Positions 4,106 through 11,849 of a DNA stretch of 64,000 nt are shown one piece after another; position 1 is the first letter of the stretch; each line of letters opens with the position of its first letter. A program made the translations under genes and the position numbers. Under the pieces are notes generated by a model, which was not told where the DNA came from, made no database searches, and worked only from the letters and a program-made list of their open reading frames with translations. This stretch comes from a phage: the NCBI GenBank assembly GCA_033648345.1, contig GCA_033648345.1_4121.1. One strand, 5' to 3'.

Positions 4106-4506
4106 ATAAAGAAGTTCAAATTATCATAACTCCACCTATACAAAGTCTGGATGTATCCATTAGTGATTTTTTGGAAAAATACTATGAATGGTTTAATGAA
4201 GATTCAGTAATTTATAACCATTCATTACCTGATGGTTTCGTTGAGCTTATTGAATTAAATGCAAAATCACTATACTTCTGTGTTGAATACAATGATTATA
4301 TGACAGATGAAGTATATCGTTTTCGTTGTACATTGTATCCTAACCATTTTTCCATTGGTTATAAAGACTATCAGTACTGCACCACAAACTATAGTGTAGA
4401 GGAAGAATTTCAGTACAATTTACTTTATCCAGATTTAGATTATACGATTGCAGTGCTGTTGACTAAAATCATGGATTTTTATAAAGATAAATATAATGCA
4501 GCCTAA
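4102..4506 (+). CDS. hypothetical protein, EEE-F-Q motif family
   Basis: ORF in track; VEEEFQYNLL motif; overlapping start/stop. Confidence 0.5.
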   Translation: MNKEVQIIITPPIQSLDVSISDFLEKYYEWFNEDSVIYNHSLPDGFVELIELNAKSLYFCVEYNDYMTDEVYRFRCTLYPNHFSIGYKDYQYCTTNYSVEEEFQYNLLYPDLDYTIAVLLTKIMDFYKDKYNAA

Positions 4507-7136: not shown

Positions 7137-7222
<86 letters not shown>

Positions 7223-7239: not shown

Positions 7240-7400
<161 letters not shown>

Positions 7401-7404
<4 letters not shown>

Positions 7405-7561
7405 CACATGAAGAATGGATGAATGACATTAATTTTAGATATTCGGGTATCGGTAAATGGCTAAAGTATCATTGGGAATTCATTTCAGAGCCACATCTGT
7501 ATGATAAACTTATCAACGATCCAGCATATGAAATGTACTTAATTGAACTACTGGTACGAAT

Positions 7562-7565
<4 letters not shown>
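7401..7565 (+). CDS. MTHEEW-family small protein, tandem copy 2
   Basis: ATGA start/stop overlap with copy 1; same length. Confidence 0.45.
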
Positions 7566-7733
<168 letters not shown>

Positions 7734-7734
7734 G

Positions 7735-8188
<454 letters not shown>

Positions 8189-8216: not shown

Positions 8217-8456
8217 ATGGGTAAGTATTTTGTGAGTTATAGTTATAATGTATCACGAAAGATTCCACGTGGTGACGGAATGGGATGGTCTTATGATGCA
8301 TATACTTTAAATGAGTCATGTATCATCGAATTACAAGAAAAAGACCTTGACATTTTAAAAATCAAACAACATATTCTTGATGTTGAATTGGCACATCGTA
8401 CTGATACCTATCCAGATGTAAACAACATCAGCATCTTAGTACTAACCAAAGTATAA
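8217..8456 (+). CDS. hypothetical protein
   Basis: track ORF trimmed to ATG 8217 after GAAGG. Confidence 0.45.
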   Translation: MGKYFVSYSYNVSRKIPRGDGMGWSYDAYTLNESCIIELQEKDLDILKIKQHILDVELAHRTDTYPDVNNISILVLTKV

Positions 8457-8532
8457 GATAAAAAGAACTTTACTAAATAATTCCACTGGAGATTAATATG
8501 TTTAAAGATGAACGTCCAGATTTGTAAAAAGT

Positions 8533-8561
8533 ACTTGAATAAATAATTCAGTACTGATATA
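8533..8561 (+). promoter_or_regulatory. putative promoter TTGAAT-N17-TATAAT
   Basis: acttgaataaataattcagtactgatataatg. Confidence 0.45.
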
Positions 8562-8926
8562 ATGAATTCCACAATTAGACGTATATGGTGTAAGTTACGT
8601 CGATGTAATCCAGAACAAGATCTCTGGTACTCTAGGAAGTGGTGAATGTTAACCTAGACGGGTTTGATAATTGGACGATAGGCAATTATTACTTGACTAG
8701 CAGGTTTAAACTAGAGGTGACAGTCCTTCACCAAACTGGAAAACCGGATGGACTTTTATTTAAAAGGGTAAGGCGTGGAAATATGTTTACAGAAGTTGCT
8801 TTTAGTAGCCTGTACGCCCCACGTCAAGGTAGCCGAAAGGCAAGTTAAAACGGGTGGTTATAAAGCTGAATTAACAGCGGCGTTTAAAAGCGTCACCATC
8901 CATTTTTTTTAATTAAAGTTGGTGAT

Positions 8927-9455
<529 letters not shown>

Positions 9456-9648: not shown

Positions 9649-10173
<525 letters not shown>

Positions 10174-10207
10174 TAAAAAACAGTACTGATATAATACAAA
10201 CATATTC

Positions 10208-10283
10208 GGCCCTGTATACAATCCAGGAATGTACTCTGCTCATAACAGATGTAAGGTCGGGGCAGCACCGACCAGGGCCACCA
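10208..10283 (+). tRNA. candidate tRNA (anticodon CAT, Met or Ile2) with non-canonical T-loop
   Basis: perfect 7-bp acceptor ggccctg/cagggcc, discriminator A plus CCA, D-arm taca/tgta, loop ctCATaa; T-loop GGCAGCA atypical and no position 26. Confidence 0.45.
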
Positions 10284-10389
10284 ATTTTGGACACATTAAT
10301 CTTCGATGGTAATGCTGGTTAATATCTTACGGCTGTAAAATGCAATACATTACATATTGCTTCAGGTACAGAGATATAAAGATTAATTA

Positions 10390-11770: not shown

Positions 11771-11849
<79 letters not shown>

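Follow-up and report, generated by a model that had tools for sequence, protein, structure and literature searches.

The window analysed here is a stretch of 64,000 nucleotides (nt) of phage DNA (GenBank assembly GCA_033648345.1, contig GCA_033648345.1_4121.1), whose source, according to blastn, is an Asteriusvirus-type jumbo coliphage of the 121Q/PBECO4 group. On its plus strand, at 8565–8910, lies a region that is 97–99% identical in approximately 30 such genomes, and for which a preliminary description, made from the letters alone, had proposed a stable RNA in the place of a predicted open reading frame (ORF). This region probably contains structured non-coding RNAs, and no protein gene, between a promoter (8535–8563) and a stem followed by eight U residues (8852–8910). 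As judged by comparison with other genomes, it consists of two, arguably three, independently mobile modules, designated M1 (8565–8754) and M2 (8772–8910, comprising M2a and M2b). The following features are located there:

8535..8563 (+), sigma-70-type promoter: TTGAAT (8535–8540), a 17-nt spacer and a TG-extended TATAAT (8558–8563)
8565..8754 (+), M1: seven hairpins and three pseudoknots, from a covariance-model match, homologues and covariation
8639..8848 (+), spurious ORF: GTG start, 69 amino acids, running from inside M1 to inside M2
8772..8825 (+), M2a: three-tier hairpin GGCGUGG/CCACGUC, UACAG/CUGUA and GUUGCU/AGUAGC, from the minimum free energy fold
8832..8841 (+), GNRA hairpin: GCC-GAAA-GGC
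8852..8910 (+), M2b, three-way junction: closing stem GGGUGGU/ACCAUCC (8852–8858 with 8895–8901), arms GCUG/CAGC (8865–8878) and GGCGUU/AGCGUC (8879–8894), then U8 (8903–8910)

The promoter, which had been expected near 8533, is predicted to initiate transcription at approximately 8569–8571, at the CCAC that forms pseudoknot A (PK-A) of M1, and the homology of other phages to the region starts at 8564/8565, right behind its −10 element. An extended promoter cassette, AGTACTTGAcTAAATAgTTCAGTACTG.ATAAT, occurs on the plus strand at 7736, 8157, 8535 and 9303, preceding small ORFs, M1 and tRNA-Ser, and appears to be of the early class in this phage. The tRNA neighbourhood mentioned in the preliminary description was recovered as tRNA-Ser at 9338 and tRNA-Thr at 11777, both downstream in the window (ARAGORN), together with a weak tRNA match at 7137–7215 on the plus strand (Rfam RF00005, 32.6 bits, barely over the gathering score) that ARAGORN did not call. 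The tRNAs nearest to M1 are 0.6 kb downstream and 1.3 kb upstream, and none directly adjoins it. The remaining landmarks were located as well, namely the GTG ORF at 8639–8848, the GNRA-loop stem gcc-GAAA-ggc at 8832–8841, the T8 run at 8903–8910 (given as near 8904) and the ggtga...tcacc hairpin at 8716–8732, which corresponds to hairpin P6 of M1 and also received a minus-strand call in the terminator scan.

The region is richer in GC than the window as a whole (0.40 vs. 0.349), as had been noticed. Thermodynamic folding alone is weak evidence for a structured RNA, with folding energy z-values of −1.9 (whole region), −1.1 (M1) and −2.7 (M2); the structure is regarded as exceeding chance because homologues in unrelated phages show compensatory base changes.

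Modularity and conserved fold of M1

When a database of 50,697 phage records was searched with blastn, the entire stretch 8565–8908 was found to be common to the Klebsiella RaK2-like phages (Alcyoneusvirus, 81%), and M1 was 97–99% identical in Asteriusvirus. Only 8565–8752 matched, at 85–91%, in Bragavirus (T4-like, Straboviridae; Proteus phages PM2 and Pm5461 and Shigella phage SdyM_006), in Morganella phage Mm5 (an unclassified Straboviridae relative of Bragavirus) and in Novosibvirus (T5-like, Demerecviridae; Proteus phages 1 and 2). Weaker M1 matches were obtained in Klebsiella phage KP13-16 (Stephanstirmvirinae) and approximately 20 Aeromonas phages of the Emmerichvirinae, and only 8767–8820 was common to a few Kuravirus phages. 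The homology stops at the M1/M2 border in four lineages, and RaK2 and the metagenome contig L022 carry a promoter-like insert (TTGAAC...TATAAT) between M1 and M2a. Among the Asteriusviruses, JNE01 has only M2, EJP2 has most of M1 but, in that comparison, no M2, and G17 and phAPEC6 have neither. The region was therefore treated as M1 plus M2, on account of the split homology, the promoter inserts and the genomes that carry only part of it.

A covariance model of M1 (R1) was built from ten copies in enterobacterial phages, using a structure drawn by hand. This model, whose E-values are rough, recovered one full-length copy per lineage (69–233 bits) and exactly one in the window, a single 190-nt copy at 8565–8754 on the plus strand that scores 233 bits with R1 and 214 bits with model R2. 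The elements of the fold are as follows:

8569..8572 (+), 5′ strand of PK-A: CCAC, with GUGG at 8639–8642 in the loop of P3
8574..8604 (+), hairpin P1: core GACGUA/UACGUC, loop AUAUGGUGUAAG; 7 of 9 pairs changed on both sides
8610..8627 (+), hairpin P2: CCAGA/UCUGG; 4 of 5 pairs covary
8631..8658 (+), hairpin P3: UCUAGG/CCUAGA; 6 of 6 pairs covary, 99% of cells paired
8659..8665 (+), junction J3/4: CGGGUUU; invariant at the C, at G 1 and 2 and at the first U following N, nearly invariant at the third G, variable elsewhere
8666..8690 (+), hairpin P4: GAUAAUUG/CAAUUAUU; loop motif GACGAUA aligned in 17 of 17 sequences
8691..8705 (+), hairpin P5: ACUUG/CAGGU
8697..8700 with 8711..8714, PK-B: H-type pseudoknot of the P5 loop CUAG with a second CUAG, with an A-rich connecting loop
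8716..8732 (+), hairpin P6: GGUGA/UCACC, with variants GGUAA/UUACC and GGUUA/UAACC
8722..8726, 5′ strand of PK-C: AGUCC, in the 7-nt loop of P6
8736..8747 (+), hairpin P7: CUGG-AAAA-CCGG; found in enterobacterial phages, absent from Aeromonas phages
8750..8754 (+), 3′ strand of PK-C: GGACU, pairing with the P6 loop; 3′ edge of the conserved RNA

Covariation was counted on an alignment of 17 sequences (751 cells), and in the slid controls the 3′ partners were moved by 1–3 columns. Standard pairs occupy 96.4% of the 751 cells in the M1 helices, compared with 24–39% in the controls; 28 of the 46 pairs are changed on both sides, and the observed covariation score was matched in 0 of 500 shuffles. 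PK-A varies by lineage group, being CCAC:GUGG, CCUC:GAGG in the KP13-16 group and GCAC:GUGC in the Aeromonas phages, and all four of its pairs form in 17 of 17 sequences, whereas non-cognate combinations are never fully paired. For PK-C, which is fully paired in 16 of 17 sequences, nine distinct combinations of loop and tail were found (e.g., ACCC:GGGU, GCCC:GGGC, AUCC:GGAU, UUCC:GGAA and UCCC:GGGA), so that both pseudoknots are backed by comparison of cognate with non-cognate strands. P5 and PK-B are each 100% paired with two pairs apiece changed on both sides, the exchanges in PK-B being UA/AU and AU/GC. An alternative to PK-B, in which P6 is extended by pairing 8711–8714 with 8736–8739, was rejected, as it is 86.8% paired compared with 100% and is contradicted by both copies in contig L023.

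The unpaired bases that are invariant or nearly so include CGG-N-U in J3/4, the P4 loop motif GACGAUA and the GAUGG that precedes the 3′ tail. G-U pairs are also conserved, at 117–149 (G-U in 12 sequences) and at 152–162 (U-G in 16); since such pairs are strand-specific, M1 is assigned to the plus strand, and RNA is favoured over DNA. Both ends of M1 are buried in helices, because PK-A ties the 5′ end to the P3 loop and PK-C ties the 3′ tail to the P6 loop. In comparative terms, M1 is thus shown to be a conserved, strand-specific RNA fold with multiple pseudoknots.

Several points weigh against this interpretation. The alignment used for counting had been fitted to the structure of the model, which inflates the percentage of paired cells, and its 17 sequences represent only approximately six lineages, related to one another through horizontal transfer. 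Folded as a single sequence, M1 has an unremarkable energy (z = −1.1), although pseudoknots lie outside that score. With the standard 7-nt distance from the −10 element, transcription would start at 8570–8571 and one or two bases of PK-A would be lost; the copy of M1 in the window may consequently have a weakened 5′ pseudoknot.

Two readings dispense with a selected RNA structure. Under one of them, the region would encode a protein, either the 69-amino-acid product of ORF 8639–8848 or that of a 45-amino-acid ORF at 8775–8912, with a codon usage made odd by, for example, recent acquisition; an open frame with a GTG start does exist, and several GenBank records carry a “hypothetical protein” at this region. 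This GTG falls on the 3′ strand of PK-A in the P3 loop, at 8639–8642. The atypical codons pointed out previously were borne out by the codon adaptation index, which is 0.53 for ORF 8639–8848 compared with 0.70 ± 0.06 for seventy-codon pieces of 37 long ORFs in the window; only 0.8% of these pieces are equally low, placing the ORF below 99% of comparable stretches, and AGG is enriched, occurring three times in 69 codons vs. 2 per 1000 in the reference ORFs. The frame is not conserved, as RaK2 has a different 50-amino-acid ORF and PM2 has a 20-amino-acid stub followed by a tRNA gene, and homology in four lineages ends at the M1/M2 border, inside the span of the ORF. P2 ranges in length from 9 to 18 nt among lineages through indels of 5, 6 and 9 nt, and therefore none of the frames through the part of M1 that lies upstream of the ORF is preserved. 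In addition, no Pfam family was matched by ORF 8639–8848, and the substitutions are compensatory in RNA helices. Genome comparison has already refuted the protein-coding reading, to which a probability close to nil is given. The suggestion of an RNA in place of the ORF accordingly stood insofar as the frame is unconserved, the helices covary and M1 is found in tRNA arrays elsewhere, but not as a single RNA, since two or three modules are present. Under the other reading, conservation would act on the DNA, as a homing-endonuclease target, recombination site or promoter array, and the RNA structure would be incidental. Homing endonuclease genes are indeed nearby (an HNH gene at 9649–10173 of the window, another in RaK2, and a segD-like gene beside the tRNA-Gly–M1 pair in SdyM_006), SegB drives the inheritance of the tRNA region in T4 (PMC2330249), and M2b holds a TTGACA-17-TAnnAT sequence. 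However, compensatory changes keep the pairing of M1 despite changes in sequence, its conserved G-U pairs are strand-specific, and a nuclease site spans 15–40 bp rather than 190 bp of helices; homing would account for the spread of M1 and not for its folding. The DNA-level reading is already very improbable for M1.

Distribution and genomic context of M1

Homologues of M1 were found in six phage lineages and four metagenome contigs, every copy being 181–192 nt long. Outside the jumbo phages, M1 directly adjoins tRNA genes in the same orientation, and in several genomes it fills one gap between two tRNAs; co-oriented, tRNA-adjacent placement was observed in five lineages. The arrangements are as follows:

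PM2, Pm5461 and SdyM_006: M1 between tRNA-Gly(UCC) and tRNA-Asp
Morganella phage Mm5: M1 after a coding sequence, 5 nt upstream of tRNA-Glu
Novosibvirus: M1 between tRNA-Leu and tRNA-Ser
KP13-16 and metagenome contig L024: M1 after tRNA-Leu, within arrays of 13–14 tRNAs
Aeromonas phages: M1 between tRNA-Pro and tRNA-Thr
Metagenome contig L023: two diverged M1 copies, one on either side of tRNA-Arg

In PM2, M1 starts immediately 3′ of the tRNA-Gly CCA, and 8 nt separate its end from tRNA-Asp; the copies that fill such gaps start right behind the upstream CCA and end 5–13 nt before the next tRNA. A TATAAT is located 6 nt upstream of M1 in contig L021, and in RaK2 a TTGACA-17-TATTAT sequence ends 8 nt before it. 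The tRNA neighbours differ lineage by lineage. According to the feature tables, no annotation lies under the M1 match outside Asteriusvirus records.

Some of these arrays contain further sequences next to M1. In KP13-16 (L005 2132–2179), M1 is followed by a 48-nt stretch that matches part of phage tRNA-Leu genes and probably represents a truncated pseudo-tRNA that the shuffling of cassettes left behind. The Aeromonas phages (L006 2081–2169; L013–L016 ~538–627) have approximately 90 nt extra between M1 and tRNA-Thr, 83–95% conserved, in which two long hairpins can be seen by eye (GGUUGAU.../...AUCAACC and GGAUAUAAUCA.../...UGAUUAUAUUCC). For RaK2 (NC_019526, L001), ARAGORN called tRNA-Leu(UAA) at 1804–1891, tRNA-Gly(UCC) at 2258–2333 and tRNA-Met(CAU) at 4202–4279, annotations that RefSeq does not hold; its tRNA-Gly(UCC) is upstream of M1, as in Bragavirus.

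A strict M1 pattern gave 0 matches in 185,579 bacterial and archaeal species genomes, blastn of M1 gave no match in 5,426 E. coli genomes, and the sole match in 72,556 plasmids was a chance 32-nt stretch. Host mimicry and a prophage origin of M1 were rejected on the basis of these searches. With a looser pattern, GACGATA-N10-16-TGACNNGCAG, applied to viral and genome contigs, 200 of 200 loci among the matches listed were rejected by R1, and this search is uninformative on distribution. As far as the searches go, M1 is a family of virulent phages and of metagenome contigs resembling them, within which its distribution, judging from the genomes compared, is patchy, horizontally transferred and dispensable.

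M2a, M2b and neighbouring features

M2a matches a few Kuravirus phages at 81–85% and a Gamaleyavirus phage at 77%, and all of its tiers are kept there; changes in the middle tier, as read from the alignment, are compensatory (e.g., UACAG/CUGUA to UGCCG/CGGUA). The three sequences containing the GNRA hairpin show no variation in it, and covariation is neutral on it. The M2b junction is 95.9% paired, compared with 26–45% in slid controls, and six of its pairs are changed on both sides among four diverged copies. Further copies of M2b follow tRNAs or stable RNAs: in EJP2 one lies between tRNA-Ser and tRNA-Arg, L022 and L021 have it behind tRNA-Arg, Klebsiella phage Asterion has it behind a tRNA-like T arm, and in RaK2 it is directly upstream of M1. 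Junctions of this type (UAUAAA-NCUG-AAUUGA-CAGN plus two covarying stems) were observed at L001 2441–2500, at L022 373-, 765- and 1764-, and at L021 ~270–345 on the minus strand, with further loci at L025 1493–1605 and L027 ~490–560.

A U-rich run lies behind most copies, those of EJP2 and Asterion having none, and M2b is a likely candidate for the intrinsic terminator of the unit. All copies also contain TTGACA or TTAACA followed by 17 nt and a TAnnAT-like hexamer, and M2b may be a combined terminator-promoter cassette that ends one unit and starts the next. Here, too, some observations count against a terminating RNA structure: the 7-bp stem before U8 closes a three-way junction and received no call in the terminator scan, the conserved loop bases include TTGACA, and part of the conservation of M2b may act at the level of the DNA, as a promoter. 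That M2b simply repeats a general promoter of the phage, present in many copies, was ruled out, as the motif occurs once in 64 kb.

The Kuravirus phages and a Gamaleyavirus phage (L007 ~1640–2300, L028, L026 ~380–760) contain an unannotated GC-rich stretch, approximately 650 nt long in Kuravirus XT18, with an M2a-like hairpin, the motifs GGACGAUAUC and ACAGAUGGAG echoing GACGAUA and GAUGG of M1, and, close to its 3′ end, a T arm resembling that of a tRNA (GGUUCGAAUCC). No Rfam match was obtained for L007 with cmscan, and the stretch may represent another large structured RNA.

Two other features of the window were recorded on the plus strand:

10207..10285 (+), tRNA-like gene missed by ARAGORN and Rfam: 7-bp acceptor stem GGCCCUG/CAGGGCC followed by ACCA, anticodon loop CUCAUAA (CAU), odd T loop GGCAGCA and its own TATAAT ~15 nt upstream; 82% identical to an annotated tRNA-Met in Pectobacterium phage CBB and 100% in JNE01
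7240..7726 (+), three tandem overlapping paralogous ORFs of 54 amino acids (MTHEEWM...): 7240–7404, 7401–7565 and 7562–7726

Relationship of M1 to known RNAs and its possible role

The covariance-model search that had been envisaged for the region, run against Rfam 15, matched no family: cmscan of 8300–9100 at E ≤ 10 yielded only noise (14–21 bits), and at E ≤ 5 nothing was found over M1 in L013, L017, L021 and L023. No tRNA or transfer-messenger RNA was called within 8565–8915 by ARAGORN or Rfam, nor over M1 in the other lineages, and full-text literature searches found no description of M1. Among candidate roles, a riboswitch or cis-regulatory leader was rejected, as the feature downstream of M1 varies (a tRNA, a promoter, another RNA module or an ORF), and so was a CsrA sponge, as the GGA motifs are not conserved on inspection; anti-Shine-Dalgarno mimicry, T-loop motifs and a resemblance to CR-I/CR-V of RNase P, likewise considered by inspection only, found no consistent support.

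The closest parallels in gene arrangement are T4 rnaC (species 1, 139 nt) and rnaD (species 2, 119 nt), non-tRNA RNA genes that lie in the phage tRNA cluster, co-oriented with and adjoining tRNAs, and have been known for decades with their function still undetermined (PMC3014915; PMC12685909). The analogy with the T4 stable RNAs drawn in the preliminary description holds for location, as the position of M1 in Bragavirus, Novosibvirus, the Emmerichvirinae and a Stephanstirmvirinae phage is equivalent, and fails for homology. Neither R1 (E ≤ 1) nor R2 (E ≤ 10) matched the T4 locus at 69000–75000, and blastn of the region also misses T4. M1 is longer than rnaC and rnaD and can have its own promoter. 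It has neither the tRNA-like T arm near the 3′ end of rnaC (CCGGGUUCGAAUCCCGG) nor the ...CACCA terminus of rnaD; unlike them, it ends in ...GGAUGGACU, paired with the P6 loop as a pseudoknot. With phage tRNAs (RF00005), M1 shares a cassette-like place in the array, orientation, spacing, horizontal mobility and, presumably, a common precursor and processing enzymes, but it is 190 nt long with three pseudoknots and no cloverleaf. It also resembles GOLLD, ROOL, raiA and similar orphan RNAs, which have complex folds supported by covariation and whose biochemical function is not established; GOLLD and ROOL are often found in prophages near tRNAs. M1 differs from these in having no Rfam match, in being much smaller and in that every copy found comes from a virulent phage of Enterobacterales or Aeromonas or from a metagenome contig. 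The jumbo phage PA5oct, a relative of 121Q and RaK2, has non-coding RNAs (ncRNAs) defined by RNA sequencing that make up 2–5% of phage reads and have no known function (PMC7318152); R2, run with filters off on the 16-kb stretch containing its ncRNA001 and ncRNA002, found only noise, and M1 is not homologous to them. By analogy, M1 can be classified as a new RNA family with a new architecture, of the same kind as the non-tRNA stable RNA genes in phage tRNA arrays.

In the proposed mechanism, host RNA polymerase would start at TTGAAT-17-TATAAT, read M1 and then M2 (8772–8901), and stop at the M2b stem and U8. Jumbo phages would make M1 from its own early-type promoter. In tRNA arrays, M1 would be released by the host enzymes that process tRNAs, along the lines of the model summarized in PMC2190699: cleavage by RNase P would take place at the downstream tRNA and cleavage by RNase E 1–3 nt past the upstream CCA, and 3′ exonucleases would trim up to PK-C and stall there, while PK-A would hide the 5′ end. 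The product of this maturation would be a compact, exonuclease-resistant and long-lived RNA. The best inference is that M1 is a metabolically stable, trans-acting RNA matured by host tRNA-processing enzymes. Action in trans is itself somewhat more probable than not; as a folded RNA, M1 may bind a protein or particle linked to tRNA, translation or tRNA-directed defence, yet the case for any specific partner would be fairly unlikely at best. An accessory role in host takeover or counter-defence would suit a distribution that is sporadic, horizontally transferred and dispensable, and homing endonucleases in or near the arrays may have provided a route for its spread.

Three other accounts of M1 bear on this proposal. 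It might be a cis-acting element of the tRNA operon, serving in processing, spacing or stability and having no function of its own once released, as its embedding in tRNA arrays with tRNA-like spacing would allow. This is improbable, given that M1 has an apparent promoter of its own and no adjoining tRNA in the window, L021 and RaK2, that the neighbouring tRNAs differ in every lineage, that close relatives without M1 still carry tRNAs, and that a spacer would need far less than seven helices with three pseudoknots and numerous invariant unpaired bases. A ribozyme, either self-cleaving so as to free itself or its neighbours or otherwise catalytic, is a decidedly improbable alternative, although large bacterial RNAs with complex folds are often catalytic and M1 has a compact multi-pseudoknot fold with an invariant CGG-N-U junction, GACGAUA and GAUGG: no known ribozyme family was matched at E ≤ 10, both ends of M1 are explicable by known host enzymes or by the promoter, and no conserved context of a cleavage site is evident. 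M1 might instead be a counter-defence decoy: it would occupy or mislead a host immune nuclease or toxin directed against tRNA and would complement the replacement tRNAs of the phage. It travels with tRNA cassettes, is accessory and patchy, moves among unrelated virulent phages of the same hosts and was not found in the bacterial chromosomes or plasmids searched; in addition, the neutralization of PARIS by a phage tRNA, as described in PMC11464382, offers a precedent for counter-defence encoded in arrays. This evidence is purely circumstantial, however, and M1 has no cloverleaf and no mimic of an anticodon loop (the P6 loop lacks U33 and purine 37), nor is any defence system known to be inhibited by such an RNA, and a decoy function appears unlikely.

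With regard to the stable, trans-acting RNA that is preferred here, M1 has moved among six or more lineages of virulent phages infecting Enterobacterales and Aeromonas and is in every case located within or close to tRNA arrays; this pattern is suggestive of selection for a task performed jointly with, or in parallel to, phage tRNAs. It would be a second example, unrelated to and more elaborate than the T4 small stable RNAs that have been known for approximately fifty years. In terms of annotation, dozens of genome records would lose a false “hypothetical protein”, and a family missing from Rfam would be added. M1 is also tractable experimentally, as the E. coli, Proteus, Klebsiella and Aeromonas phages concerned are culturable and natural variants without M1 exist. 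It is rather unlikely, but conceivable, that M1 constitutes a new functional class, namely a ribozyme, an RNA that engages the tRNA or translation machinery, or one that engages a tRNA-directed immune nuclease, disseminated as a cassette among the tRNA arrays of virulent phages that are unrelated to one another. If this were true, carriage of non-tRNA effector RNAs would be a general property of phage tRNA arrays, and RNA C and RNA D of T4 would be one case of a wider phenomenon.

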